Assembly: GCA_963712115.1 (NCBI GenBank)
Contig: CAVQGX010000046.1
Coordinates: forward strand, 1 to 64,000
Length of the DNA stretch: 64,000 bases
Direction of reading: 5' to 3'
From: an uncultured delta proteobacterium
GTDB lineage: Bacteria; Desulfobacterota; Syntrophobacteria; BM002
Shown here piece by piece: positions 1,962-28,402 of this stretch. A program made the translations under genes and the position numbers. The notes under the pieces were generated by a model, which was not told the DNA's origin, did no database searches, and saw only the letters and a program-made list of their open reading frames with translations. Positions within the stretch are counted from its first letter, which is position 1. Every line of letters starts with the position of its first letter.

Positions 1962-3635
1962 TTACTCTGCCTTCACCTGAACAATCCTTGATATTTCTTC
2001 AAATGTGGTTATCCCCTTCGCTACTTTCTCCAAGCCATCGCGAAAGAGGGTGCGCAGATCTCCGCTCTTCAATGCTGCTTTACGGATCTCTGTAGAACTT
2101 CGTTTCTCGTTGATCAGGTCTCTTAAGGGATCCGAGATTAAGAGCAACTCATATATACCGATTCGACCACGATATCCGCTGAAGCGGCAGGCCTGACATC
2201 CTCTGCCCCGATAGAACTTGCGGCCTTTGGCACGCTTGGCAATGCCGAACTGCTCTAGAATCTCTGTAGTTGGAACAAAGGGTTCTTTACAAGACGCGCA
2301 GATGGTTCTGGCCAAGCGTTGGGCCAGCACGCCGGCTACGCCTGAGGATATAAGAAATGGTTCAACCCCGATGTCTACCAGACGAGTAACGGCTCCCGGC
2401 GCATCGTTGGTGTGCAAGGTGCTAAAAACCAAATGTCCAGTAAGAGCAGCCCTTGCAGCCATTTGCGCGGTTTCCAGATCTCGAATCTCTCCCACCATGA
2501 TCACGTCAGGGTCCTGTCGTAGGATAGCCCGCAACCCGCTGGCAAAGGTAACCCCGGCCTGAGGGTTGACCTGTGTTTGGCGAATTTGCTTGAGTCGATA
2601 TTCCACCGGATCCTCAATGGTGATCACGTTGAGGGTGGGACTGGTAATGGTATCCAGGGTCGCATACAAGGTTGTGGTTTTGCCACTTCCCGTGGGACCT
2701 GTGACCAGAACCATACCTTCCGGCAGCTTCAGCAGTTTCATGTAAGAGTCTAAGATGGCAGGGGGCAACCCGAGAGATTTTAGTTCGAGGATAGTAGCAG
2801 TCGGATCCAAAATACGCATGACAAGGTTTTCCCCATAAATTGTGGGGAAGGTGGAAAGACGAACCTCTATCTGCTTGCCTTCGGAGTCAAGATAAAAACG
2901 GCCGTCTTGTGCCGACCTCTTTTTCGCAATGTCAATCTCGCCCCACACCTTGAATCTGGAAGCAATTGCCTCGTGAATGCTCTTGGGGAGCTTTTTGATC
3001 TCTTGCAATACTCCGTCAATCCGGTAACGCACCGAGACCTCTTTTTCGCCGGGCTCGATGTGCACGTCACTGGCTCCATCTCGAACCGCCTGCTGAATAA
3101 TCAAGTTCGCCAACTTGATCATTGGAGCTTCCGAGATGTCGGCTGTCTCTTTTTTCCCATCTTCTACCGAAGCTACGTCCTGAATAAGTTGGGTGATTGA
3201 CTCATCCATCCGGTAGTAATGGTCAAGACATCGGGTGATTTTTCCTTCGGTGGATATTACCGGCTCGATCTCGCATCCCGTCTTACTGCGCAGGTCATCT
3301 ACTGCAATGAGGTTGAGAGGATCCGCCATGGCCACGGTTAGAGCGTTGCCTATTTTGAAAAGAGGAAGAGCCGTATAGGCTCTAGCGATCTTTTCGGGAA
3401 CCAGTTCGATCACATCGGGATCGAGGGCATAACTGTCAAGATCCACGTAGGGAATCTGGCGCTGCTGCCATACAGCTTTGGCAACGTCTTCCTCGGTGAC
3501 CGCTCCCAAGGCTACCAGGGCCTCGCCAATTTTCAGTCCCTCTTCTCGCTTCTGTTTCTCCAGACCAGCCTTCAGCTGCTCCTCTGAGATCAGCCCCTCA
3601 TCTATTAGGATTTCACCCAGAAGCTTCCTCTTCAT
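1962..3635 (-). CDS. mshE: GspE/PilB/MshE-family pilus assembly ATPase with N-terminal MshEN-like domain
   Basis: Walker A GPTGSGKTT, TIEDPVE, LRQDPDVIMVGEIRD, STLHTND, Zn-binding CASC/CQAC; N-terminal LGEIL..G..L..Q tandem; last gene of MSHA-like operon. Confidence 0.88.
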   Translation of the reverse strand: MKRKLLGEILIDEGLISEEQLKAGLEKQKREEGLKIGEALVALGAVTEEDVAKAVWQQRQIPYVDLDSYALDPDVIELVPEKIARAYTALPLFKIGNALTVAMADPLNLIAVDDLRSKTGCEIEPVISTEGKITRCLDHYYRMDESITQLIQDVASVEDGKKETADISEAPMIKLANLIIQQAVRDGASDVHIEPGEKEVSVRYRIDGVLQEIKKLPKSIHEAIASRFKVWGEIDIAKKRSAQDGRFYLDSEGKQIEVRLSTFPTIYGENLVMRILDPTATILELKSLGLPPAILDSYMKLLKLPEGMVLVTGPTGSGKTTTLYATLDTITSPTLNVITIEDPVEYRLKQIRQTQVNPQAGVTFASGLRAILRQDPDVIMVGEIRDLETAQMAARAALTGHLVFSTLHTNDAPGAVTRLVDIGVEPFLISSGVAGVLAQRLARTICASCKEPFVPTTEILEQFGIAKRAKGRKFYRGRGCQACRFSGYRGRIGIYELLLISDPLRDLINEKRSSTEIRKAALKSGDLRTLFRDGLEKVAKGITTFEEISRIVQVKAE

Positions 3636-3707
3636 TCTTCCTTACCGTTCTTAATACTCGCTAGTGTCAAGCTCAAAAATCGCTACGTAGGCGCGAAAGG
3701 CAAAAAA

Positions 3708-3823
3708 CACCGCCAAGAGCACAAAGAGATGGAATTGCAGATTGCGATATCTTCTAGTCCTACTGGAGTCACTCTACAATCTCAAATCTAAAATCTTAAA
3801 TATTCTTGGTGCTCTCTGTGGTT
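3708..3823. repeat. Gene-less GxxExxY-type IR element with a nested heptamer-repeat hairpin
   Basis: caccgccaagagcacaaaga ... tcttggtgctctctgtggtt enclosing gattgc/aaatct repeats. Confidence 0.5.
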
Positions 3824-4026
3824 CAATTCGCAAAACTATCAGAAACCACACGCAAAAACTAGGCCAAAATTATAACTCCCCGCTGTCAGGAGCGGGGAGT
3901 TAGGAGTCAGGAGACAGGAGTCAGAATCCAGGAGGCAACGGGCCTAGAGCAGAGTTCTTAGAGCATGGAGTTTTAGTCTTGACCCTATGCGCTATGCTCC
4001 ATGCCCTATGCCCTGCGCCCTGTGCC

Positions 4027-5376
4027 TTACTTATTCGGCGGCCCTTCGAGAGTGCGTACTCTGTCTTGCACTTTTTCACGGAGTTGGGGATAGGCTGACG
4101 GGTTGCCGGCCAGAAATTGGCGGTAGTGGGTGAGAGCCTTCTCGTGTTGGCCCTGCTCTTCCAACATCCGGGCAAGATTGTAATGGGCTTCGGGGTTTTC
4201 CGGGTCATTGGTTAGCACTCGCTCGAGAGTGCGGCGGGCCAGTTCTCCTCGACGGAGCCGTTCGTATACCAAAGCCAGGTTGACCTCACTTTGGCTGTTG
4301 CCAGGATTCAATTGTAAGGCCTGCTCATAGGCGGCACGAGCCTTGTCAAAATTTTTCAACCTGTAATAGATAATGCCTAGATTATTATAACTAGGATAGA
4401 AGCGAGGGTTTATACTGATGGCCTTCTCATAAGAATTGGCAGCCATTTTCACCTGGCCCTGCTTTTCGTAACAAACACCAATATTGTTGTAGACTTCGGC
4501 GCTCATGGGTTCAATTCTAAGCAACTCGTTGTAGGTTTCGATTGCCTTTTGCCACTTCATAGCTTTCTGATAGTCCACCGCCTTCCGATATAGAGAAGCG
4601 GCCCCGGCTGTGGTTTCCGCATAGAGATTGACCTGACCGCTCTTCGTGCTTCTCACGGAGCTTCGCTCTGGCCCCTCAGTAATCACTATTGTTTTTGGCT
4701 GCCCGGTTGAGTCCGGAGCGGCCAGGTGCTCAGGCTTGCTTTTCTCTGCTCTGCCGACCTTAGGGTGGCGGGTCTTCTCTGTGCGAAGAGGTTCTTTGTC
4801 ACCCTCAACCTGCTCGGCCGAGTGCAGGCTAACCACGCCAACTTTCACCTTGTTGCTGGGTTGTAGTGGCTGTTCTCCAGGTTCCACAGCGGACCCACCT
4901 GGCTCCAGCGCAGCAGTTTTGATTGGTTTCTCACTTTCATCATTATCCACCGATGGGGATGGTTTTTTGACCTCTTCCTCTGGGGAAACAGGTTCTTGCT
5001 CAATAGCAACCTGAACAACTTTCGGCTTCACCGGTGTGCGCTCGTCCTCCTTTGGCTCTTGCACCTGCTGAAGCTCTTCATGGACATCACTTTCCGCCGG
5101 CTCCGGTGGAGGGTGGATCTTATCGAAAATCACCTGCTGGGGGACTGAGGCTGGAGCTTCCTCGGCCTCTTTTTGCCCGGCTTTCCTCTGAACCATCCCG
5201 TAAAAAACCACACCGATGACAACGCCAGCAAGCAGCATGGTTAAACCTAAAAGCATTAAAAGCCGCTTTTTATTCTCGGGTCTCTGACCAGCGAGTCTTC
5301 GGGGAATGACCGGTGGCTGCTTGCGCCCCGCCCGCTGATCAGCCACCCTTTTTAAAGATTCGGAAATGAGGCTCAC
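4027..5376 (-). CDS. Membrane-anchored TPR protein (MshN-like)
   Basis: GTG start at 5376 after GGAGG; (M)SLISESLK N-terminus, one TM helix, low-complexity linker, C-terminal TPR repeats; lies between ExeA-like and MshE-like genes. Confidence 0.8.
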   Translation of the reverse strand: MSLISESLKRVADQRAGRKQPPVIPRRLAGQRPENKKRLLMLLGLTMLLAGVVIGVVFYGMVQRKAGQKEAEEAPASVPQQVIFDKIHPPPEPAESDVHEELQQVQEPKEDERTPVKPKVVQVAIEQEPVSPEEEVKKPSPSVDNDESEKPIKTAALEPGGSAVEPGEQPLQPSNKVKVGVVSLHSAEQVEGDKEPLRTEKTRHPKVGRAEKSKPEHLAAPDSTGQPKTIVITEGPERSSVRSTKSGQVNLYAETTAGAASLYRKAVDYQKAMKWQKAIETYNELLRIEPMSAEVYNNIGVCYEKQGQVKMAANSYEKAISINPRFYPSYNNLGIIYYRLKNFDKARAAYEQALQLNPGNSQSEVNLALVYERLRRGELARRTLERVLTNDPENPEAHYNLARMLEEQGQHEKALTHYRQFLAGNPSAYPQLREKVQDRVRTLEGPPNK

Positions 5377-5399
5377 GCCCAACCTCCTAGTCGGTTTTG

Positions 5400-5503
5400 A
5401 CCGCAGAGCACGCGGAGATCGCAGAGAAAATCAATGTAAATGGTACTGCAAAAGGTTCCAACGCCATATATGCTTTCTCTGCGTTCTCTGTGGTCTCTGT
5501 GGT
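5400..5503. repeat. Gene-less element with GxxExxY-cassette-type 30-bp inverted repeats
   Basis: accgcagagcacgcggagatcgcagagaaa ... tttctctgcgttctctgtggtctctgtggt with a 44-bp spacer. Confidence 0.75.
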
Positions 5504-7027
5504 TCAATCTTTATTGGCCCCCTGGCCTTTCGCACTCTCTTTGTGCGTGGCAATCTGCCGGGCCCTGTGAAATTCACTCTTTTGACTCAGTTTGCGGGCC
5601 ATAACCTGTGCCTCGCCCTTGTCTTTGTACTTGCCCACTAGAACCCTGTACCAGGTACCCATCTCACCCAAGTCTATCCAGGCTACCCAGGCATCGAAGC
5701 CGCGATTCTGCAGCTCTCGCATTCTCGCCGCGGCGATTTCCGGGTCTTTAAAGGACTCCACCTGTACGGTGTAGACATATGGCGGTTTGAGCAGGTACTG
5801 GGGAAACCTTTCCTTAGATGGTCTCGCATCAGACTTGGCCAAGGCAGCTGTTTTTGGCTCGTCACTTCCATCTTCCATGACCGGGCGAGCTTTAGAATTA
5901 GCACTACCTGTAAACCTCTCCACCGAAGAATCCTTGTTCAGGGGTAAAGGAGAAGTCACATCTCTTTTTTCGGCCCGGATCGGGCTTCTCATCACCGCCG
6001 GCTTTGGTTGGGGGATTTCAGCCCGGACAAATTGGCGCGAGTAGTTCAGGGGAGAGAAAGACTTCTGCGTAAAACTCCGGTTCACATAACTTCTCAACAT
6101 CTCCCGCATTGTGGGGACAAACACCAATGCGCTTGCTATTACCAGAACGGAAAGTGCAACTGAGGCCCCCTTCCAACTGTGGCCGAATCTCAGGAACGAC
6201 CTGGGACGACTTCGTGGAAACCTCCCGTTCAGACTCTGCCGCCCATCTACCACATGGGTTTGCCTTATTTTGCGGCTTTCCGCGAGATAGGCGGCCAGCA
6301 AAGAGCGCTCGGCAATTATATTAATCAACCGAGGCACTCCTTTGGAGAAACGGTAGATCTCACGGTGCGCCCCTTTGTCGAAAGAAGTGCTTCCTGCAGC
6401 TCTGGCCATATTCAAACGGTGTTGCAGATAACTTCTGGTTTCCCTCCTATCAAGAGGTTTGAGGTGATAGCGGAGGGAGATGCGCTGCTGCAGATGGCGA
6501 AGTTCAACAGCCTCCAATTTGACCGGCAGTTCCTCACTCCCCACCAGAATTATCTGAATGAGCTTCTCCTTGTGGGTCTCTAAATTGGAAAGTAACCTCA
6601 CCTGCTCCAGACATTCTGTGGATAGATGCTGGGCCTCATCAATTATCAACACCGCGGTCCTGCCGGCAGCCAGAGTTTGCAGGAGAAAGCGATTGAGCAC
6701 ATCCAGTAACTCTTTTCTGGTGGTCCCTGCCGACGGCAGTCCGAAGTCCTCCAGAATGGCCTTGAGCAGCTCCTCTTCGTTGAGCAGAGGGTTTAGGACA
6801 AGAGAGGTCTTTACCTCTTGAGGATCGAGGCGCTCGAGGAGGGCCCGGCACAGAGTGGTCTTACCTGTGCCCGTATCTCCACTGATCAGGACGAATCCCT
6901 CTTTCTGGTGAACGCCATAGAGAAGATGGTCCAGAGCCTCGCGATGCTTTTCGCTAAAAAAGAGAAACTTGGGATCGGGCGTCAACCCGAAGGGTTTCTC
7001 ACGGAGGCCAAAAAAATCCAGGTACAT
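5504..7027 (-). CDS. ExeA/MshM-family AAA ATPase with TM segment and C-terminal SPOR domain
   Basis: MYLDFFGLREKPFGLTPDP start, GDTGTGKTT, IIDEAQHL, GVPRLIN; SPOR YTVQVESF..WYRVLVG. Confidence 0.9.
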   Translation of the reverse strand: MYLDFFGLREKPFGLTPDPKFLFFSEKHREALDHLLYGVHQKEGFVLISGDTGTGKTTLCRALLERLDPQEVKTSLVLNPLLNEEELLKAILEDFGLPSAGTTRKELLDVLNRFLLQTLAAGRTAVLIIDEAQHLSTECLEQVRLLSNLETHKEKLIQIILVGSEELPVKLEAVELRHLQQRISLRYHLKPLDRRETRSYLQHRLNMARAAGSTSFDKGAHREIYRFSKGVPRLINIIAERSLLAAYLAESRKIRQTHVVDGRQSLNGRFPRSRPRSFLRFGHSWKGASVALSVLVIASALVFVPTMREMLRSYVNRSFTQKSFSPLNYSRQFVRAEIPQPKPAVMRSPIRAEKRDVTSPLPLNKDSSVERFTGSANSKARPVMEDGSDEPKTAALAKSDARPSKERFPQYLLKPPYVYTVQVESFKDPEIAAARMRELQNRGFDAWVAWIDLGEMGTWYRVLVGKYKDKGEAQVMARKLSQKSEFHRARQIATHKESAKGQGANKD

Positions 7028-7036
7028 AATCCTCTC

Positions 7037-8674
7037 TCACGGATTCAGGTAATCTATGGGCAGACGATCTTGCTGTTCGAGCAAATCAATCCGTCTGAGA
7101 TCCTCGGCCTTTAATTCTTCAATCCTCTTGCCGGTGAGCACCGTGGGAGTAATCAAGATGACGAGCTCGGTTTTTTCCGTATTTTCCTGTCTATAACCGA
7201 AGAGGTAGCCGAAAACCGGTAGGTTCGTCAGGCAAGGAAGCCCCGTCCGCTCTGTTGTGTCCGTTTCCTGAATGAGTCCTGCAATAATAATGGTCTGCCC
7301 GTCCCGCACCCTGACCACTGTGTCGGCCTCTCGAATGCGAAGCAGGGGAAATTCACTGCCATCGGGAGCTGTCACTCTTTCAAACTCGGCAGTTATGCTG
7401 GGATGAATGTTCATATTAATATCCCCGCCAGGGCCGATCTGCGGGGTCACGTCCAGAATAACACCCACGTCGATGGTGTTGGGCGTGAAGGACTGCAAGG
7501 TAGTCGTCTCTCCCTGGCTTATTTCAGAGGTGAAGTACACATCCTGTCTGGCGACTTTGACGATGGCAGTCTGATTGTTCATAGTGGCTACTTTGGGGCT
7601 GGCCAATGCTTTTACTTTGCCCTGCATTTCGAGGGCCTTTACTAAATCGGCAAGGACAAAATCACCGCCTGCCAGTGGCCCGGTAGAGCCCGCAACCAGT
7701 AGAGCCCCAGTGGCACTGCTTTGCGTCCCCCCTCCCAAAATGTTCCAACTAATCGACAGCTCGCTGAGGTCCAAGTTGAAAAACTGCTCCTGAATATTAT
7801 CCCAGCGAATACCGGTCTCGAATTCCTTTCTCAGAGTCACCTCCAAGAAGCGCGCCTGGATGAGCACCTGGCGCTGGCTCGATGCCTCCATATGTTCGAG
7901 AAAATTCGCCACTTCACGCAGTTTTTCGGGATAGTCCCGCACCTGAATGAGGCCGCTGGTCTTGCTAATCACCAGCTTCTTCCCATCTTGGCTGGTCAAG
8001 CTGGAGACCACCCCTGCCTGTCTAGCCCTGAGAACGGCCGCAGGTTTCTCCTCAGCAAATATTATGGCGGTCAGCCCTTCCTGAATCTCCGCCCAGAAGT
8101 CCGTTTCGTCCTTGCCGGAGATACGGGTCTCACTGGCACTTATCTGTTCACCGCCGGCCCCTGATCCATGGGTGGCCACTACGGTCTTTTCACCTTTGCG
8201 GCTGGTGCTCACGTAGTTCACCTGAAAGATCCTTGTCTCCAGTATCGGCTTGGAGATGCGGATTATACGACCTTCCCTGCGATAACTGAAGCCCAGCTGG
8301 CCGAGGATTGCGTCCAGTGCCTGCTCCAAGGTCACCCGATTGAGGTTTACCGTCACTGTACCGGTCACTTCGGGGTCCACCACCAGATTCTCTCCGCTTT
8401 CCTGGGCAAGGGCGAGAAGCACGTCTTGGATCTGTGCTTCGCGAACCCTGAGCGAGTAAAGTTTGCCAGGACTACCTACAGCTAAACGCGCCGGCTCTTC
8501 TTCCTGAAACTGGGGAACGGTGAGTTCTTCAAGCGAAGATTCAGGAACCGGAAATGTCTCTGGTGGTCTCGCAGGGGCGGGTTCCGGCTTGCTGGCGCAC
8601 CCCGAGAATAAATACACCACGGCAAAAATAGTAATCGCCACTAATCCATTTATCCAGATCTTCCGGCTAATCAT
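7037..8674 (-). CDS. mshL: MshL-type secretin (lipoprotein)
   Basis: Lipobox FSGC; STN and secretin_N2 (TRIFQVNY); secretin core QVLIQARFLEV, SPKVATMNNQTA, GQTIIIAGLI, ELVILITP; start placed at ATG 8674 after AGGGGTGAG. Confidence 0.88.
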   Translation of the reverse strand: MISRKIWINGLVAITIFAVVYLFSGCASKPEPAPARPPETFPVPESSLEELTVPQFQEEEPARLAVGSPGKLYSLRVREAQIQDVLLALAQESGENLVVDPEVTGTVTVNLNRVTLEQALDAILGQLGFSYRREGRIIRISKPILETRIFQVNYVSTSRKGEKTVVATHGSGAGGEQISASETRISGKDETDFWAEIQEGLTAIIFAEEKPAAVLRARQAGVVSSLTSQDGKKLVISKTSGLIQVRDYPEKLREVANFLEHMEASSQRQVLIQARFLEVTLRKEFETGIRWDNIQEQFFNLDLSELSISWNILGGGTQSSATGALLVAGSTGPLAGGDFVLADLVKALEMQGKVKALASPKVATMNNQTAIVKVARQDVYFTSEISQGETTTLQSFTPNTIDVGVILDVTPQIGPGGDINMNIHPSITAEFERVTAPDGSEFPLLRIREADTVVRVRDGQTIIIAGLIQETDTTERTGLPCLTNLPVFGYLFGYRQENTEKTELVILITPTVLTGKRIEELKAEDLRRIDLLEQQDRLPIDYLNP

Positions 8675-8811
8675 CTCACCCCTATCGCGCACGTAAGTGA
8701 CAAGTGTACTAACCTTGTCACCAAACATTGAAAAACAAGCTAACTTCGCAGAACACCCTATCTACTAATCGGCCAAACGCATGGTCATCAAATGTTACGC
8801 TATGCGATGGT

Positions 8812-9342
8812 TCACTTCCCTCCAGTGCTCTCCACCGTGACTTGCGTTTGCGGCTGAGGTACCTCGAGCAAACGCTCCCCAAAATCACCGGTCAAAACTA
8901 CATGATCCAGCGTGATGTCAGAGATCTTTTCTTTGCCGATTTCATCCCCCACTGCATAGATCCTGTCGTTGATAACCGCCAATCGGTTAGATCCAGTAAT
9001 CAAGATGGTTGAAAGCTTATACTGCGGTCCCTGCTTTCCACTCTCTGGTTGAGATCTAGCAACTTTCTCTGGCGAGGTCGCAGTTTCTTCGGCCGCCTGA
9101 TATGGGGAGTAAAATGGGTCCCGACCCCAGCCGCCAGGAATCAGCTCCTCCGCGCTTGCATCTATTTCTTTTTTCTCTTGCTTCCCGCTTTGGGTCAAGG
9201 TCACCAGCATCTTATCCAGCGGCGCACCTGGCTGGACCTGCTCACGCTTAGGCCCAAATAACCAGATAATTACCCACAGGAAAAGCGCCACACCCGCTAC
9301 ACAGTAAACAAAAATCTTATTTGGCGGCTTCGTTAGATCCAT
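8812..9342 (-). CDS. MshK/GspB-like pilus assembly protein
   Basis: N-terminal TM, GRDPF motif, LSTILITG..AVINDR..VGD; between PilO and secretin. Confidence 0.7.
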   Translation of the reverse strand: MDLTKPPNKIFVYCVAGVALFLWVIIWLFGPKREQVQPGAPLDKMLVTLTQSGKQEKKEIDASAEELIPGGWGRDPFYSPYQAAEETATSPEKVARSQPESGKQGPQYKLSTILITGSNRLAVINDRIYAVGDEIGKEKISDITLDHVVLTGDFGERLLEVPQPQTQVTVESTGGK

Positions 9343-9363
9343 TCAAATGGTCCCTAGTCAGTT

Positions 9364-9812
9364 CACCGCGGAGAACACAGAGACCGCAGAGAAATTATTC
9401 TTTCAAACCAAGAACCATTCTGCGTATCCCGTTCTTAAGCACCCTGACATTAAAATTGATCAATAGCCCCACCTTGCAACCGGACAATTTCAGATAAGAT
9501 AAAAGTTGAGCCTTATGGATTGGCTCCAACCTGTCCTGTGCCTTAAGTTCGACTATCACCTTTTCTTCCACCAGTAAATCCATGCGATAACCACAGTCTA
9601 CCTTTACACCTCGATATTCCACAGGCAGGGCCTTTTGTCGTTCTACTGCCAATCCGCATTCCGCCAGTTCGTAGGCCAGACAAGCCTCGTAGGCTGATTC
9701 CAGCAGGCCAGGACCGAGTTCCTGATGAACAGCCATCGCCGCCCCTATGATGGTTTCTGTGATCTTGTTCAACTCCTTTACCATCTCTGCGAACTCAGCG
9801 TTCTCTGCGGTG
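9364..9812. mobile_element. Putative GxxExxY mini-cassette bounded by 29-bp imperfect inverted repeats
   Basis: 9364-9392 vs reverse complement of 9784-9812 match at 24/29; IRs abut the start and stop codons. Confidence 0.65.
9395..9784 (-). CDS. GxxExxY protein (PD-(D/E)xK nuclease-like family)
   Basis: LGPGLLESAYE, YRMDLLVEEKVIVELKA, QLLSYLKLSG..GLLINFN. Confidence 0.92.
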   Translation of the reverse strand: MVKELNKITETIIGAAMAVHQELGPGLLESAYEACLAYELAECGLAVERQKALPVEYRGVKVDCGYRMDLLVEEKVIVELKAQDRLEPIHKAQLLSYLKLSGCKVGLLINFNVRVLKNGIRRMVLGLKE

Positions 9813-9846
9813 CACGATTACGGCTCAACGACGGACTACTAACCTT

Positions 9847-10404
9847 TTAGCTTCTAAACGCAATCTCCAGCTGAAGCCTAATTTCCAGAAGCTCTGAAGG
9901 CTCCCGCCCTCGTCCAACGCTCAACTCGGCGACTTTCACGTAAAACGGCTGTTTTTCGAGGGAGCTAATGAATTCACCCAGCTGCTCATACCGCCCTCGA
10001 ATACCGAGATTAAGAACAAGTTGGCGAAATTCTCCCACTTTGCCGCCCTGCGTGCGCAAAGCGGTGTCTTTCCCCGGTCGAATGTTTTGAATTTGAAGAC
10101 CCTTAGTTTTGGCCTGTCTACTCACTTCGTGGATTAGCTCCGCAACCTCAGCCTTGTAGGAAAGTGCTTGTTCCAGTTCAGCTACCTGCCGCCTCTTTTT
10201 GATCAAATTAGAATTCAGGGAGTTAAATTCCACCAGCTTAGGACCGATGCTCGTGGTCTGCTTATTTAACTCCTCAAGCTCAGCGCGAAGCTTGCGCACC
10301 TTCTTGGTGTGTGGCTCGAGCACGAATTGGTTGATAACAAAGACAATCGCTACCAGGCCGACCACAGCGGTGATTATCTTTTCTCTTGTACTCAGTTCCT
10401 TCAT
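9847..10404 (-). CDS. pilO: PilO/MshJ-like pilus assembly protein
   Basis: LSTREK + TM, coiled coil, GRYEQLGEFISSLE ferredoxin-like C-terminus; follows PilM-PilN. Confidence 0.8.
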   Translation of the reverse strand: MKELSTREKIITAVVGLVAIVFVINQFVLEPHTKKVRKLRAELEELNKQTTSIGPKLVEFNSLNSNLIKKRRQVAELEQALSYKAEVAELIHEVSRQAKTKGLQIQNIRPGKDTALRTQGGKVGEFRQLVLNLGIRGRYEQLGEFISSLEKQPFYVKVAELSVGRGREPSELLEIRLQLEIAFRS

Positions 10405-10435
10405 TCAGCGCTCCGAGCTTTCCGCATTCCAGGTC

Positions 10436-10500
10436 TGTGGGAGCGGCTTTCCCCGCCCGCCTCGCCTGAGCGTCTCGCGATGGCGGGCAGGTAGCCGCGA
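10436..10500. repeat. GTRG-type REP palindrome interrupted by a 40-bp GC-rich palindrome
   Basis: tgtgggagcggctttc[cccgcccgcc...ggcgggcagg]tagccgcga; insert recurs in reverse at 44532-44608. Confidence 0.6.
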
Positions 10501-10583
10501 CTTCTTACGCTGACCTGGCTAAACAGTCTCAACCGGCTCAACTGGCAAAACCGACTAAACTGACTAAACCGGCAAACCCAAAA

Positions 10584-12278
10584 TCACTTAAGAGTGCAGC
10601 CAAGCTCGAAAGCCAATGCTGCCGCTCTGGGGGCTTTCTGATCTCCAGCACTTTCGAGCTCGACATCCGAAAAGATTTTTGCTTTTCCCAGCTCCTCCAT
10701 AAAGTTGGTGAGCATGGGAAAAGCTTCTTCTTTTTCACCGTAAATCAGACCTTGCAGCTTAACTTCGAGTCCACTCTCCTCCTTTTTCTTGAAATCCATG
10801 TTTGTCAGCGACATATTTTCTGGAATTTTCTGGCTGATGAGTCGCAAGGCTGCAGCTACCCGAGGAACTCGAAGATCCAGGTTCGGCATCTCGGCGAGCC
10901 TGGCATCGAGTTGACTATTTTCTGCTTGCACCCGCTCGTGTTCCTGAAAAATATATTTATATTGTTCAAAGGCGGTCTTTTTGATATTCACCGCACTGCG
11001 AAGAGAGGCAACCTGCCGATGGCTTTGCCAGGCGTACTGGCCCAGGGGGAACAAAAACAGCAGGCCCAAAGTAGCATAGGCCACCGGTGCCCACACACTC
11101 CACCTTTTTCGATGGGGTTGCAGGTCAAGGGGAAGAAGGTTGAATCGTTCTCTTAAGGGCAGGGAGAGGCCCACTGCCACTGTAAATACCGGTCGAGTTG
11201 CCGCGTCCAGTTCTGAGAATGCCGTGCTATCCTGGAAAATAATTGGCGCCAGGGGGTCCAGAAAACCGACCTTTAGGTCAAATCTTTCTGCAAAGAAGGT
11301 CTCGATTCCTTTCAGTTGAGCCCCTCCACCTGCCAACAAAAGCCTGGTTATGGTTTCACCCTGGAATTGAAAAGCGTAGTAGTCAAAGGAACGGGAGATC
11401 TCGGTCTCTAGCTTCTCGAGCACCGGCCGAATCCTTATGGCCACCTGTGAGAGAGGTATTCCTTCAGCCGTTTTGCCCCGGTCTTCCACTGAAGGAATTC
11501 CGTGCTGCCGCTTAAGGCTTTCAGCCTGAGCGGTATTCAATTCAATCTCCTGCTTACCTGCCCGAATCATACCTGTCAATGCCATGGTGAATGCATCACC
11601 AGAGGTTGGAACATACCGAGAAAATTGGAGCTCCCGCCCATGAAAAATGTGAATGCTGGTTTTACGAGCTCCAAGGTCAAGGACCGCTATGGATCCCTCC
11701 TCACCCTCTCCCAAATTAGTGTTTTGCCACAACTGTTCAAGGGCATGCGGCTCAGCCATCAGACCTACGGGCTCGAGACCCGCTTCATGAAGTAACTCAA
11801 CGTGCTCCATGACCGTTTCTCTGGTGGCTGCCGCAACCAGCACTTCCTGTTTGGTTTGACCACCACTTTCGTCCCTTGAGAGTACCTGGAAGGCGAGCAT
11901 GGCATCCTCCAGGGAAAAGGGAAAAAGCTCGCCAGCCTGCCAGCGGATGGCCTCTTGAATTTCCTCTTCCGGGATGTTTGGCAGGCTCAACCTCCGTGCA
12001 GCAACGCCATTGCCGGCTAAGCCAACCACCGCCTGTTTGTTCTTGATCCGACCTTCCTGAATCATCTCTTTCAGTTGAGCCGCAAGTACCGAAATCTGAA
12101 AACCTCCAGGAGGAGCGAAAGCCGTGGCGTGGTGCACGATATCCATTCCCCTGGGAGTAATTCGCAACTCAACTATCTTGATTGTGTGATTGCCTATATC
12201 AATGCCCAGGTGGCTTTTGCCCGGCCCCCTCAGCTTGCCCAGGATATCGGGAGTTTTCAGTCTAGATAGTTTTGCCAT
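10584..12278 (-). CDS. pilM: PilM-PilN fusion (MshI-like)
   Basis: Actin-like LGIDIG, VLDLGA, LLAGGGAQLKG; then FNLLP, TM, coiled coil and PilN-like domain. Confidence 0.85.
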   Translation of the reverse strand: MAKLSRLKTPDILGKLRGPGKSHLGIDIGNHTIKIVELRITPRGMDIVHHATAFAPPGGFQISVLAAQLKEMIQEGRIKNKQAVVGLAGNGVAARRLSLPNIPEEEIQEAIRWQAGELFPFSLEDAMLAFQVLSRDESGGQTKQEVLVAAATRETVMEHVELLHEAGLEPVGLMAEPHALEQLWQNTNLGEGEEGSIAVLDLGARKTSIHIFHGRELQFSRYVPTSGDAFTMALTGMIRAGKQEIELNTAQAESLKRQHGIPSVEDRGKTAEGIPLSQVAIRIRPVLEKLETEISRSFDYYAFQFQGETITRLLLAGGGAQLKGIETFFAERFDLKVGFLDPLAPIIFQDSTAFSELDAATRPVFTVAVGLSLPLRERFNLLPLDLQPHRKRWSVWAPVAYATLGLLFLFPLGQYAWQSHRQVASLRSAVNIKKTAFEQYKYIFQEHERVQAENSQLDARLAEMPNLDLRVPRVAAALRLISQKIPENMSLTNMDFKKKEESGLEVKLQGLIYGEKEEAFPMLTNFMEELGKAKIFSDVELESAGDQKAPRAAALAFELGCTLK

Positions 12279-12638: not shown

Positions 12639-14224
12639 GAGACTGTTCAATAATTCAGTTTTAGCAATGGGCTGATCTTTTCATATCTTCTGAACATGAA
12701 GATTATATCTTGGGTCAAGGAGATATCATGCTCAATCACATGCATCAACACGTTATCCATACCCATGTAAGTGTTGGTGTGTTCCATGCGATAGCGGTTT
12801 TCCTTGACCAGACCATAGTTCCTTTCAATTGCTGTTCGCATGGGTTTGAGTTTTTTGTAAATGATTGACCCTGGGATGGCAGGGCCGTATTTTCGGTAAC
12901 CGTCTTTGAACCTGGTGTAATAAATCAGCCCATTGGGAAACGAGCTTTTCAGATATGGGCAATCAAAGGTCATTTGCTCTGTTCTTTGACAAATTTTACG
13001 ACACGCGTATTTGCTGCGTTTTCTGGCATAGTCAACAACTACCCTGCTCATCTGTTGGCCCCAGATGCAGAGCGGAATACCATCGGCAGTAAAGCCTTTC
13101 GGATATACGGTCTTTTTCCGAATGATGACAGGGATGATTTCATAGTCTTCGTAGAGTTTCTGGTGGATCGGTTCTGTATCATAGCCCCGGTCTAGGACAA
13201 TGTAAGCTATCTTCATCTCAGGGAAGCGTTTGCGAAACTCATCTAGGAGAGGAAACAGGTAATCTTGGTCTGATGCATTCCTCGGGCTGCTTTCGCTTAC
13301 CAGCGGTACTCCGGTAATGGTTATAAGCGAATGGGCCTTGTGGCCAATGGGAAACTTATCCCGGTGATGGGGGCGGCCAAAAGTAACCGAAGGATCAGTG
13401 AAGAGCCAGGTGCCATCTAGTTGCTTCTTGCCATTGGTTGAGCAATAAGCCCGGATGGTGGTTGAGTCAGCGATCACAATGAGTCCTTTTCGCCGATTCT
13501 TTGGGAGCATCGGCAGCTTTGGATCAAGCAGCTTGAGCTCGTGGGCACAGCGGACAAAACCCCCATGGATCTGGCCATAGCCTCCAACTCCCAGAGTCTT
13601 TCTCAAGGTAGAGTAGGTGTTATGAGCTGGCACTTTGCCATCGGAAAACCCGCACAGTCTTCGATAGGTGGCAACCTCTTTGAGTCGCTGAGCCAGGATG
13701 CGGTCCGAGATGAAGACTTGTTTCACCTTGAGGATGCGAGAGAGAACCAGCCAAACGCCATAGCCCTTTGGGCCACGACTGCCAAAAGCCTTTTCAACCA
13801 CAGTGGCAATAGGCTGAGTATCGATGTTGAGAAAGTAGTTGACCAGATCATTTTTACGATCGGCAAGATCTGCTCCAGCACTGGAGATCGTCCCAAAGGG
13901 GATTTGGATTTCTCCCATGGTGGCACCTCACAAGCTGTTCAATAAAAACCCAGGGGGGTGTTCAATAATTCATGGTGCCAGATTGTGGGAAGAAATCAAA
14001 GAAAACCTATTGATTCTACTTAGAATTACCGAAAATTACTTGTCAAAGAGCAATGTCTGTCACCCCTGAAAAAGTGGGGATGACTTTTCCCCAAAAATGG
14101 GGATAACTTTGTATGTCATTAGCGCTTTTTACTCATGAAATTAATGTAAAAGTGGGGATAACTACCCCAAAGGTACCTCTATAACTCATTGAGTTTACAC
14201 TAATAAAAATTATTGAACAGTCTC
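12639..14224 (-). mobile_element. Complete insertion sequence, IS1182/IS5-like, 1586 bp
   Basis: Perfect 17-bp terminal IR GAGACTGTTCAATAATT (12639-12655 / 14208-14224), AAATT direct repeats at 12634-12638 and 14225-14229, single transposase. Confidence 0.9.
12647..13918 (-). CDS. DDE transposase (IS1182-like, Cys-rich insertion domain)
   Basis: N-terminal SDR.L..L..YRRLCGF..P.HNT; D (ADSTT), D (LDRGYD), E (R..IERNYG); stop codon lies inside the IR. Confidence 0.88.
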   Translation of the reverse strand: MGEIQIPFGTISSAGADLADRKNDLVNYFLNIDTQPIATVVEKAFGSRGPKGYGVWLVLSRILKVKQVFISDRILAQRLKEVATYRRLCGFSDGKVPAHNTYSTLRKTLGVGGYGQIHGGFVRCAHELKLLDPKLPMLPKNRRKGLIVIADSTTIRAYCSTNGKKQLDGTWLFTDPSVTFGRPHHRDKFPIGHKAHSLITITGVPLVSESSPRNASDQDYLFPLLDEFRKRFPEMKIAYIVLDRGYDTEPIHQKLYEDYEIIPVIIRKKTVYPKGFTADGIPLCIWGQQMSRVVVDYARKRSKYACRKICQRTEQMTFDCPYLKSSFPNGLIYYTRFKDGYRKYGPAIPGSIIYKKLKPMRTAIERNYGLVKENRYRMEHTNTYMGMDNVLMHVIEHDISLTQDIIFMFRRYEKISPLLKLNY

Positions 14225-23272: not shown

Positions 23273-23458
23273 CTGATTCCAGGCTTTGGGTGCCTACTAA
23301 ATCCAAAGGTCAAATGTCCAAAAAGTAGTTTTCCTTCTAAATGTTGTTATCCCAGATCTCTTCTCAGTGCCTAGTGCTTAGTGCATAGTGCCTAGTACCA
23401 ACTGTCTTCTGACCTCTGACCTCTGTATTCTCCGTACTCTCTGTGGTTCACTCCTTAT

Positions 23459-25654: not shown

Positions 25655-26521
25655 TCAGAGACATGTTACCTTTTCCTTCCCCTGTAACCTCTCTCGTAAG
25701 ACCTGTAAGATCGTATAATCTAGGTCTTTTCCCAGGATATTGTTCCCCAGATGGGAGTGATCTCTGAAGTTTCCGTGAAAGTCCGAGCCTCCGGTACAGA
25801 TTAATCCCAGACTTTTAGCAACATCCTCATAGAGGGCTACCATCTCTTCTGTGTGGTTTGGGTAGAACACCTCAATTCCCTCCAAACCCATTTCTCGTAG
25901 CTCGCGCACCAGTAAAGCTAGTTCGTCAGGCTTTGCCATTCCCAGGGTGAATGGGTGAGCGAGAACCGCAATCCCACCTGCCCTCCGAATTATGGCAATG
26001 GCCTCCTCCGGCGGGAAGCGAAACTTTTCTACGTAAGCCACAGCCCCTTTTTTCAGATAGCGTTCAAAGGCCTGGTCAATGCTGGACACATAACCCCTGT
26101 TTACCAGTGCCCTGGCGATGTGTGGCCTTCCCACCTGTCCGGCTGAAAGATCAAGAACTTCAGTCGTGCTTATCTCCAGCCCGAGGGCCTGTAGCCGTTC
26201 AATTATCTTGGGGTTACGAGCAGCCCGTGCCTGTTGGAGTTTTTTCAGGGCTCCTTGAAGCTCACGATTGGAGGCACGGATATAGTAGCCCAGGATGTGC
26301 ATGGTTCCGGGCGGATACTGGGCGCTGATTTCAACCCCTGGCACCACCTCAACACCCAGCTCGTCTCCAGCTTCCAGTGCTTCCTCCACCCCAGCCACAG
26401 TGTCATGGTCCGTGAGTGCAATTGCGCGCAATTTTCTCTTTTTGGCGAGCTGAACTAGTTGTCTAGGTGAGAGACTTCCGTCCGAATAACTGGAGTGGGT
26501 ATGGAGATCAATGCGGTTCAT
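25655..26521 (-). CDS. PHP-domain phosphoesterase (TrpH/YciV-like)
   Basis: DLHTHS..SDG, LTDHDT, GVEIS, GRPHIA, LAHP, GGSDFHG. Confidence 0.9.
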   Translation of the reverse strand: MNRIDLHTHSSYSDGSLSPRQLVQLAKKRKLRAIALTDHDTVAGVEEALEAGDELGVEVVPGVEISAQYPPGTMHILGYYIRASNRELQGALKKLQQARAARNPKIIERLQALGLEISTTEVLDLSAGQVGRPHIARALVNRGYVSSIDQAFERYLKKGAVAYVEKFRFPPEEAIAIIRRAGGIAVLAHPFTLGMAKPDELALLVRELREMGLEGIEVFYPNHTEEMVALYEDVAKSLGLICTGGSDFHGNFRDHSHLGNNILGKDLDYTILQVLRERLQGKEKVTCL

Positions 26522-26785
26522 TTGTTTTTGGTCATTTGGCCAAACCGGTCAAATATGTGGATTGGCCATTTGGCCACAAGTCAAAGAAGCCAGGAGTCAG
26601 AATCCAGTAGGCAAAGAGCAGAGGGCATAGAGCATGGGGCATAGGGTTCAAACACTTCGAAATCCGAGATCCGTAATCTTTAGTCTAGAATCTCCATACT
26701 CCAGCACTCCATACCATTTGTGATCTCAATGCTCTCTGTGGTTCAATCTTTTTCGCTCTGCGCTCTGCGCTCTGCGCTTTGCGAT

Positions 26786-28402
26786 TTACCTATAATACTT
26801 CTCCAAGTACTCACTTACCATGCGTTGGGTGTTGAACCTTGGAGCACAGTCAGAGATAGAGGCCTTCATCATCTTGATCCACTGGGGGCGACTGGCGTAG
26901 TAAGTAGTTACCGCATCCTCCAGATCAGCATAGAAATCAGCAGCGGTATCCTCATCCGAGGCGTCCTCATCGTCACCAATGGCCCAGCCGTTGACCCGAT
27001 TGTTGCAGACTTCACGCCACCAGCCATCCAGTACACTCATGTTAATGCCACCATTAAAGGTTACTTTCATGCCGCTGGTGCCGGATGCCTCCCTTGGGCG
27101 TCTGGGATTATTGAGCCAGAGATCCACTCCCTGGGTCAGAAGCTTGCCCTGCCACATGTTATAGTTTTTAAGGTATACCAAGCGGAACCGCCCTTCGTAT
27201 TTCTGGGTAGTGTGGATTATGTCCTGGATCACTTTTTTACCGGCCTCGTCCTGTGGGTGTGCCTTGCCAGCAAAAATAAATTGGACCCGATTGCGTGTAA
27301 GGTTTAGCAATCTCTCCATGTCCGTAAAAAACAGGGTAGCTCGCTTGTAAGCAGCAGCCCTGCGGGCGAAACCTACTGTGAGAAATTCCTCGGTAAAGCC
27401 TGCATTGGAGTCGGCGTTGACATAGCGAATAAGTTTGCGCTTGGCAGAGAGTTCGGCCTCAGCCAGAGTCTCATCAGGAATGTTATTGGCACCTTCCAGC
27501 ACCTCCGGGGATCCTCTCCACTCAGGCAAAAATTGATCATATAGCCGGGCATAGTCCGGACCGGTCCAGGTCAAGTGATGCACACCGTTGGTTACGTGAC
27601 CAATTTCGTAACCTGGAAACATTTCCCTGCTAACCTCACCGTGGAGCTCACTGACGCCATTGCAGGCGCGGCTTAGATTCAGGGCCAGGCGGGTCATGTT
27701 AAGACCATCCTTTCCGCCAAACTCTCGAATCTCAGGAGGCAAAAAACTTCCAAGGCTTTCCTCCGCCAGGTCATAGCCGAACACATCATGGCCTGCGGGC
27801 ACCGGGGTATGGGTGGTAAAAATACATTGTTCGCGGACCCGATTAACATCCCCATCAAAATCATGATAAAGGGCCAGGGTTAGGAAGGCAGAATGGCCTT
27901 CGTTCATATGGTATGTGGTTATCCCCCTCTCCAACCGTTTTAGCGCTTTATAACCACCTATACCGAGAATTGCCTCCTGGCAAATGCGGGTGTGACTGTC
28001 GCCGCCATATAGGTACTGGGTAACCAGTCTATCGTCCGCCGTGTTGTCATCAAGATCTGCATCCAGAAAATAGATGGGAACCTTTCCTTTGATGCCCTGA
28101 TAGGTGTACTTCCAGACCCCGACCTTCACCTCCCTGCCATCCATGGGAACACTTATCTTCATCGGCAAAGGCTCCATAAATGCACGGGGGTCGAAATAAG
28201 GATACATCTCTTCTTGCCAACCCATGGGGCTGATATTCTGCATGAAGTAGCCCCTTTTATAGAGCAAGCTTACCGCCACCAGTGGGAGTCCCAGGTCAGC
28301 GGCAGATTTGATGTGATCACCTGCAAGTATGCCAAGACCCCCACTGTAGGTTGGGATGCTTTCGTTGAGCCCGATTTCCATAGTGAAATAAGCAATTTTC
28401 AT
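26786..28402 (-). CDS. glgP: Alpha-glucan phosphorylase
   Basis: YSGGLGILAGD, HMNEGHSA, FTTHTPVPAGHD, TNGVH, EASGTSGMK. Confidence 0.93.
   Translation of the reverse strand: MKIAYFTMEIGLNESIPTYSGGLGILAGDHIKSAADLGLPLVAVSLLYKRGYFMQNISPMGWQEEMYPYFDPRAFMEPLPMKISVPMDGREVKVGVWKYTYQGIKGKVPIYFLDADLDDNTADDRLVTQYLYGGDSHTRICQEAILGIGGYKALKRLERGITTYHMNEGHSAFLTLALYHDFDGDVNRVREQCIFTTHTPVPAGHDVFGYDLAEESLGSFLPPEIREFGGKDGLNMTRLALNLSRACNGVSELHGEVSREMFPGYEIGHVTNGVHHLTWTGPDYARLYDQFLPEWRGSPEVLEGANNIPDETLAEAELSAKRKLIRYVNADSNAGFTEEFLTVGFARRAAAYKRATLFFTDMERLLNLTRNRVQFIFAGKAHPQDEAGKKVIQDIIHTTQKYEGRFRLVYLKNYNMWQGKLLTQGVDLWLNNPRRPREASGTSGMKVTFNGGINMSVLDGWWREVCNNRVNGWAIGDDEDASDEDTAADFYADLEDAVTTYYASRPQWIKMMKASISDCAPRFNTQRMVSEYLEKYYR

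Follow-up and report, generated by a model that had tools for sequence, protein, structure and literature searches.

Two kinds of bacterial system have been described in which a small gene is associated with inverted repeats and which come close to the element reported here. In the REPIN/RAYT system, REP doublets are accompanied by a REP-associated tyrosine transposase (PMC3116915, PMC3337134). In such systems, short hairpin-forming inverted repeats lie between genes and far outnumber the small associated gene, the gene is itself flanked by inverted repeats and is described as single-copy and vertically inherited, and gene-less copies would be non-autonomous. The second system are intervening sequences of the 23S rRNA that carry an open reading frame (ORF), such as that of Coxiella burnetii with S23p, which are small ORFs within inverted repeats, inserted in sense orientation in a transcribed host unit and selfish in their behavior (PMC4990558). 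We describe here a cassette at positions 9361-9815 of the window, as we call the first 64,000 nt of contig CAVQGX010000046.1 from an uncultured delta proteobacterium. It consists of a GxxExxY gene enclosed by two inverted arms of repeated 9-nt words. The host genome is labelled G000 and its congeners G002, G005, G007 and so on. The cassette belongs to a widespread partnership of a gene and a repeat that we found described in no paper: a full-text literature search, which covers papers but not their supplements, returned no published description of such a cross-phylum family and nothing that ties intervening-sequence proteins to inverted tandem repeats.

REPIN/RAYT is the closest functional counterpart, although the cassette is not a member of that system. 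Its enzyme is assigned to the PD-(D/E)XK nucleases and not to the HUH/Y1 transposases, and the Y1 genes of G000 are not flanked by arrays. The GxxExxY gene is multicopy (5 copies in G000, 0-7 in congeners) and laterally moved, in contrast to the RAYTs of the accounts cited above, and in place of one REP each arm holds tandem repeats of a 9-nt word. The closest architectural counterpart is the ORF-bearing 23S rRNA intervening sequence, with which the cassette shares the small enclosed ORF, the sense orientation in a transcribed unit and the selfish behavior; at the junction in question, G007 carries a cargo type related to it, a four-helix-bundle protein. However, the cassette is inserted between protein-coding genes (a pilO-like gene and a gene for a 176-aa protein), its cargo is a nuclease and its arms lack a sense-strand wobble signature; a search of positions 3000-11000 against Rfam returned no family at E <= 0.1.

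The arms of the cassette, 9361-9392 and 9784-9815 in the repeat search, are 32 nt each with 391 nt between them and are complementary at 26 of 32 positions (81%). The ungapped score of the arm pair is 20, while the maximum among 200 shuffles of the arm is 11. Arms and gene together make up a box of 455 bp. Each arm contains three 9-nt units of CRCRGAG form plus spacer and has ACCGC at its outer end. All parts read on the minus strand: the 5' arm in gene direction (9784..9815) ends with the A of the ATG at position 9784, the gene (9395..9784) encodes 129 aa with a predicted PD-(D/E)XK nuclease fold, and the stop codon at 9395-9397 is followed after 2 nt by the 3' arm (9361..9392), again with three 9-nt units. 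The gene is the only ORF inside the box, which is without a transposase. Hence, the first-pass annotation of the window was right in describing a gene exactly bracketed by inverted repeats of 9-bp units, with start and stop codon at the arms, and an element free of a transposase. Arms and gene are real; census, word counts and shuffles rule out a chance origin of the repeats.

Comparison between genomes shows that the box is a discrete mobile unit, copied as one piece within and between genomes. In G005 the same cassette is found at the same junction, and 427 of 455 positions are identical (93.8%), whereas identity falls to 66.9% in the 176-aa gene, 67.0% in pilO, 67.7% in the secretin gene and 74.1% in pilMN; directly outside the arms, identity is down to 50% over 18 aligned bases and 58% over 24. 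The cassette is far more alike than its flanks; it is much younger than the split between G000 and G005 and arrived laterally and recently. The nearest relatives by flank identity (G007, G012, G016 and G002; 84-92%) do not have the cassette at this junction, while G002 carries a diverged copy with arms at another site (77.5% amino acid identity). Within G000, the sister cassettes C31a (C31:167773-168197) and C31b (C31:229288-229705) are 94.9% identical over 430 nt. Their identity begins with AACCAC and stops with GTGGT, exactly at the arm ends, their flanks are unrelated, and one of them is located in the tip of a short palindrome. That identity to other copies begins and ends at the arm ends supports the earlier claim of a mobile cassette. 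The absence of an evident target duplication had also been noticed, and the three pairs of junctions that we compared (window and G005, C31a and C31b, G002) show none either. One contig of the public run X2 joins position 9347 to 9845 with unknown letters in between and has a right side that is about 90% like the window; it probably carries another insert.

Free-standing homing endonuclease genes are a known system of nuclease genes that invites comparison, as are miniature inverted-repeat transposable elements (MITEs) with their parent insertion sequences. The cassette resembles the former as a nuclease gene without a transposase that is present at the same site in diverged genomes (93.8% against 67% in the flanks). 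It differs by its defined arms of repeated words, by the many gene-less hairpin copies and by its position in spacer palindromes instead of conserved gene sequence. Terminal inverted repeats and short non-coding derivatives by internal deletion are traits in common with MITEs and insertion sequences. In contrast to these, however, the three junction pairs have no target-site duplication, the cassette encodes neither a DDE nor another known transposase, and the gene-less copies are diverged (75-85%) and not near-identical.

The insertion site lies in an MSHA-type pilus cluster, whose genes (1962-12278) are all on the minus strand and encode an MshE-like ATPase, a TPR protein, an AAA/SPOR ATPase, a secretin, the 176-aa protein (without family match in profile searches), a PilO-like protein and a PilM/PilN fusion. 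The cassette occupies the junction between the stop of the pilO-like gene and the start of the 176-aa gene, and its own gene is co-oriented with the operon. At the same junction G007 has a four-helix-bundle gene of the 23S intervening-sequence type with very different arms, and G016, G012, G017, G011 and G010 have gene-less mosaics of 115-280 nt with nested arrays of several short repeats; G017 among them retains a left-end scar of the cassette word. A comparison of this junction in relatives had been proposed as a check, and with the cassette present in G005 and missing from G007, G012, G016 and G002 the gene is not always there. The statement that paired copies sit between pilus-operon genes holds as well, the junctions of the operon being filled by them. 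Comparison of the junctions also reveals an outer layer of heptamers (GTCCGTT/GTCAGTT type), with its left half at 9350..9363 and its right half at 9827..9846 of the window. This layer is common to most of the congeners compared, so that the cassette is nested within an older inverted layer. The G007 insert (locus L003, contig C192) is 478 nt long, has CCGGTTAG-type arms and lies exactly at the junction that matches window positions 9343-9846. G000 itself has 14 four-helix-bundle matches (for example C18:8275, C30:121568-124810, C52:9176 and C42:157608), and most of its intact four-helix-bundle genes lie between inverted arrays made of 7-9-nt units that are their own. An AAGGGGCRC-like leader before the ATG is conserved in the four-helix-bundle genes and is also found upstream of several GxxExxY genes.

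The link between gene and word extends far beyond the genus. A genome scan of species representatives, queried with the 11 closest sequences, yielded a wide set of 80 loci from many bacterial phyla and archaea, which represent one subfamily with 53-76% identity to the query; 77 were usable and 3 were too near a contig end. The genus set comprises 26 loci, 5 from G000 and 21 from congeners. As control we fetched 30 four-helix-bundle loci, of which 2 were near contig ends, leaving 28 loci from 28 genomes of the phylum. We defined an array as two or more CRCRRAG units with a period of 8-11 and counted arrays within 150 nt of the gene. Such an array is present at 62 of 77 wide loci and on both sides at 43 of them, compared to 2 of 295 distal control windows of the same loci and 0 of 28 four-helix-bundle loci. 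Of the genus loci, 13 of 26 have an array by the strict word and 16 of 26 have tight arms (score of at least 13). An enrichment of the repeats around other GxxExxY genes had been named beforehand as a test by the first-pass annotation, and for the word class it is strong and specific. An additional control for arm scores, made from mis-paired flanks, was contaminated, since the word is common to the arms of different loci (maximum 24.5, with 20 of 77 loci above its 99th percentile), and it was replaced by the distal-window and four-helix-bundle controls.

Details of the arms give further hints. Among genus loci the word variant differs by protein clade (CGCAGAG, CACGAAG, CACAAAG, CACGAAA, CACGGA or CACAGAT). 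In 50 arm pairs, 48 of 83 unit spacings are 9 nt, 14 are 8 nt, 10 are 10 nt and 5 are 11 nt, whereas in the four-helix-bundle arms the words are many and unrelated and the period is 7 nt in 17 of 23 cases. The two arms of a pair agree at 85% of degenerate unit positions (338/399) versus 56% in the spacers (131/234). A conserved AC prefix (A 70%, C 68%) stands before the outermost unit, and the spacers of internal units are variable. In 56 of 65 arm pairs the gene is enclosed and the ACC ends point outward. Because the word is conserved across phyla and is cargo-specific, while spacers and the arms of the other cargo drift, we consider it rather probable that the GxxExxY protein recognizes CRCRRAG arrays. 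GxxExxY proteins (TIGR04256/PF13366) form a very large and often multicopy family. In the genus they are found in 14 of 18 congeners, decayed copies exist, and relatives with 75-76% amino acid identity are present in other phyla and archaea. GxxExxY genes on the archaeal contigs L035 and L042 (Methanophagaceae, Methanosarcinales) have 68-76% amino acid identity to the window protein, which suggests transfer between domains.

Gene-less arrays are far more numerous than the genes. The genome-wide count that had been proposed gives 105 arrays in G000, compared to 3 for a reversed-word control, and 5 GxxExxY genes. There are 22 plus-then-minus array pairs, two of them sharing one arm, and all 5 genes lie inside array pairs. 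Gene-less word-class hairpins outnumber the genes about tenfold or more. Hits to a two-unit pattern occur in 18 of 18 congeners (43-328 versus 0-4 for the control), including four congeners in which no GxxExxY gene was found. Outside the genus, G073, G137, G138, G058, G059 and G092 have 51-225 two-unit CRCRRAG hits and no TIGR04256 match. The gene-less elements of G000 fall into subfamilies, within which similarity is 75-85% over 100-150 nt. One family, about 600 nt long, has the same ends as the two larger GxxExxY elements on C31. In its member C1:18630-19300 the leader and ~40 nt from the end of the ORF are still present, which makes it an internal-deletion derivative of a GxxExxY element. 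Thus, gene-less hairpins arise in part by internal deletion, as judged from this sister subfamily in G000, and the proposal of MITE-like gene-less derivatives is supported to that extent.

In the window, a gene-less hairpin of the CRCRGAG word class is found at 5400..5503, with arms at 5400-5429 and 5474-5503 of three units each around a core of 44 nt. It takes up the space from the stop of the ATPase gene to the start of the TPR gene. Its arm score is 18 compared to a null maximum of 15, and the z-scores of RNA folding are -7.9 (plus strand) and -5.5 (minus strand). Among the congeners compared the hairpin is confined to G000; close relatives have other mosaics there and keep one terminal unit beside the ATPase gene stop. 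A second, degenerate gene-less element with CACAAAG/CACAGAG-type ends lies at 3709..3825. Taken alone the pair is weak (15 of 19 matches, score 11, null maximum 14). G007 carries the element in the same orientation, G002 (L145) has the core inverted with the arms in place, G016 has another insert instead, and the element was not found in the more distant congeners compared. It is nevertheless a real word-class element, as it recurs at this junction in two congeners. The inverted core in G002 would result from recombination between the inverted arms or from an independent insertion. The first-pass annotation had taken 5400-5503 and 3708-3823 for gene-less recurrences of the inverted repeat pair of the cassette. 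Both elements are real, but what they share with the cassette is the word class: sequence comparison reveals no similarity to the cassette past the arm words. A derivation of 5400-5503 and 3709-3825 from the window cassette is hence unsupported, since the shared unit motif alone forces high arm identity. The half-sites reported near 23429-23450 and 26724-26746 do carry right-end-like words on the plus strand, a solo word at 23428..23450 and a solo array of degenerate units at 26722..26745, both within mosaic spacers and without a partner arm within 700 nt. The word attributed to four right ends, CTCTGTGGTTCA, has 5 exact matches in the window versus 0.28 expected. They comprise the four named sites and 61513, which is without arm context.

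The 129-aa protein matches TIGR04256 with 160.3 bits (cut-off 35) and PF13366 (PDDEXK_3) with 155.5 bits (cut-off 22). The name-giving motif, G26-x-x-E29-x-x-Y32, is conserved in 22 genus sequences, E29 and Y32 being themselves among the conserved residues of the window protein. In the same sequences the catalytic set E39, D69, E79, K81 and Q93 is conserved, with D69 nearly invariant and E79 and K81 invariant. An AlphaFold2 model has a pLDDT of 93.7, and structure comparison of the model gives 3ijm_B (Z 8.6), BpuSI (Z 8.0), Cas4 SSO0001 (Z 7.7) and Hjc (Z 6.1) as neighbors; the top rows of Foldseek are Cas4, Hjc and lambda exonuclease (E 0.004-0.05). All structural neighbors are PD-(D/E)XK nucleases, none stands out, and the model predicts a restriction-endonuclease-like fold. 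Sequence searches of the PDB (nothing at E <= 1) and of PHROGs (no match) were negative for the protein, and PADLOC gave weak Cas4 likeness only (E 3.6e-4). The gene differs from that of G005 by 14 synonymous and 6 non-synonymous codons (dS 0.172, dN 0.021, dN/dS 0.12), and the low ratio indicates that the protein is under purifying selection. The papers that our searches found to name GxxExxY or PDDEXK_3 give no function, and the function of PDDEXK_3 is listed there as unknown. The link to a conserved DNA word in inverted arrays provides this family with a testable and likely DNA target.

The reading that we prefer, with a confidence that comes near to even without reaching it, is that the 455-bp box is an autonomous hairpin-armed mini-cassette whose nuclease acts on CRCRRAG arrays, a REPIN/RAYT-like partnership built on a nuclease fold. 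The plan of the family is two inverted arms of about three 9-nt CRCRRAG words each, with an outer ACC(A/G)C end, that enclose a promoterless gene for a small PD-(D/E)XK nuclease, read in the direction of the host operon. The box lands between co-directional genes, frequently at the tip of a palindrome or repeat layer that was already there, and without target duplication. The nuclease would recognize CRCRRAG arrays as DNA and would cut at the arms or at the tips of extruded hairpins, and from there the element might be copied by host repair or recombination, for instance into a site whose arms match or into the tip of a palindrome. On this view the element would bring its own enzyme, and the gene-less hairpins would depend on it as non-autonomous partners. 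That the nuclease drives the copying of the cassette is possible, and we hold this step with somewhat more reserve than the partnership as such. In its strongest form, GxxExxY would be the sole enzyme of a cross-domain, transposase-free class of mobile DNA that reads tandem CRCRRAG words, cuts hairpin or cruciform DNA and leaves it to host repair to copy the element into palindrome tips; we regard this form as doubtful. If it were true, such elements would be an unrecognized force in shaping operon spacers in bacteria and archaea. On the preferred reading, the REPIN/RAYT life-style would have been invented a second time, independently and on another fold, with horizontal spread across phyla and into archaea. 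It would also account for a share of the hypervariable repeat mosaics in operon spacers of the genus and elsewhere. Such mosaics have consequences for the annotation and assembly of genomes and perhaps for the expression of operons.

Several observations weigh against the autonomous, nuclease-driven cassette. A nuclease alone cannot join strands, and binding, cutting and transposition by this protein are predictions drawn from sequence. No array is near the gene at 15 of 77 wide loci and, by the strict word, at 13 of 26 genus loci, and 9 of 65 arm pairs are inside-out or have the gene between two complete hairpins. Excised, circular or empty forms, proposed earlier as a check, were sought in the Logan contigs of public runs, where none was found. 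The arm-gene link could mirror common descent of the cassette instead of recognition. In the genus, G016 has 161 hits and no GxxExxY gene was found in it. Over 120 more genomes of the phylum, each at least 90% complete, the number of hits and the number of genes are correlated (Spearman coefficient 0.51), which speaks for the link, but this correlation is partly trivial, as each gene adds its own arms, and related genomes are non-independent. The gene is present in 15 and absent from 7 of the genomes with at least 25 hits; below 25 hits, 78 are without the gene, but 20 carry it. Array-rich genomes without a TIGR04256 match include G073 (225 hits), G138 (98) and G137 (80). The claim of the first-pass annotation that the nuclease mobilizes its own cassette can therefore be followed for the mobility of the box, whereas the nuclease as its driver is inferred and has to be reconciled with array-rich genomes without the gene, such as G073.

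These genomes (7 of 22 array-rich ones in the phylum sample, plus G016) are also what one would expect if the arms were moved or rebuilt by an unlinked recombinase, by replication slippage or by repeat recombination, and the GxxExxY gene merely rode in the loop while serving another purpose such as defense, repair or addiction. An unrelated four-helix-bundle cargo has the same architecture and in G007 even the same junction, the spacers of the pilus operon are hypervariable mosaics of many repeat types, and the inverted core of the 3709-3825 element in G002 is of the kind that arm-arm recombination would yield. However, it speaks against a passive passenger that the word class is specific for this cargo and kept across phyla (62/77 versus 0/28), while the four-helix-bundle arms drift to many heptamers. 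Nor was a candidate enzyme seen next to the arrays. G000 has four PF01797 genes, which encode Y1 transposases, but none of them is flanked by CRCRRAG arrays, and we reject a RAYT-type Y1 transposase serving the arrays in this genome. On balance, we consider passive cargo unlikely, although it is the strongest of the rival explanations.

A different origin of the arms has to be considered in view of the resemblance to the intervening sequences. The arms might pair in the operon transcript, and RNase III or a similar enzyme might cut the stem, free the cassette mRNA and spare the operon, so that selection would act on an RNA stem. The architecture indeed equals that of ORF-bearing 23S rRNA intervening sequences (PMC4990558). 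The predicted hairpins are stable, the start codon is at the stem, and the cassettes lie in operon spacers, the median gaps being 54-78 nt. Neighbor orientation, taken from a crude ORF-based call, shows the gene co-oriented with co-directional neighbors in 44 versus 10 cases in the wide set, 17 versus 2 in the genus and 24 versus 0 for the four-helix-bundle genes. This bias also fits expression through read-through from the host operon. If the stem of the sense transcript were kept, mismatches should favor G.U over A.C on the sense strand. Yet in 65 gene-bearing arm pairs we count 95 sense versus 99 antisense G.U-compatible mismatches (binomial p = 0.83), besides 193 transversions. Likewise, 11 gene-less hairpins between co-directional genes give 16 versus 16 and fold better in sense in 5 cases and in antisense in 6, and the 5400-5503 hairpin is more stable in antisense (-52 versus -41.2 kcal/mol). 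The wobble tests thus give no sign of an RNA stem. Spacer columns are just 56% complementary, and a mere stem would not need a word conserved across phyla. Some contigs assembled from RNA libraries run across the two arms (X16 records 17 and 18, X15 record 15), but they may be DNA-derived and are mute on transcription and processing. Taken together, we regard selection on an RNA stem as improbable.

Least of all do we expect a domesticated host function, with the arrays as regulatory or structural sites (termination, mRNA stability or nucleoid binding) and GxxExxY as their binding protein kept for the host: purifying selection (dN/dS 0.12), arrays in 18 of 18 congeners and the terminal unit retained beside the ATPase gene stop in close relatives would be in line with it, but the gene is patchy (0-7 copies per congener, found in 14 of 18) with decayed copies, the cassette arrived recently and laterally, relatives with 75-76% amino acid identity occur in other phyla and archaea, and junction contents turn over among close relatives.

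Other repeats and mobile genes are found in and near the pilus cluster. A GC-rich palindrome of ~65 nt at 10434-10500, between the pilO-like start and the pilMN stop, represents a separate and very abundant repeat family. It has no Rfam match, recurs many times in every congener at 85-100% identity and reaches a word depth of 3805 in run X1. Just past the pilus cluster, a gene for a 423-aa DDE transposase at 12647-13918 (minus strand) has weak matches of the IS1182/IS5 type. The operon spacers at 3636-4026, 5383-5503, 23380-23450 and 26500-26800 are mosaics of unrelated short tandem repeats (GGAGTCA, CCTATGC and CGTTCAA types), the content of which varies between close congeners.

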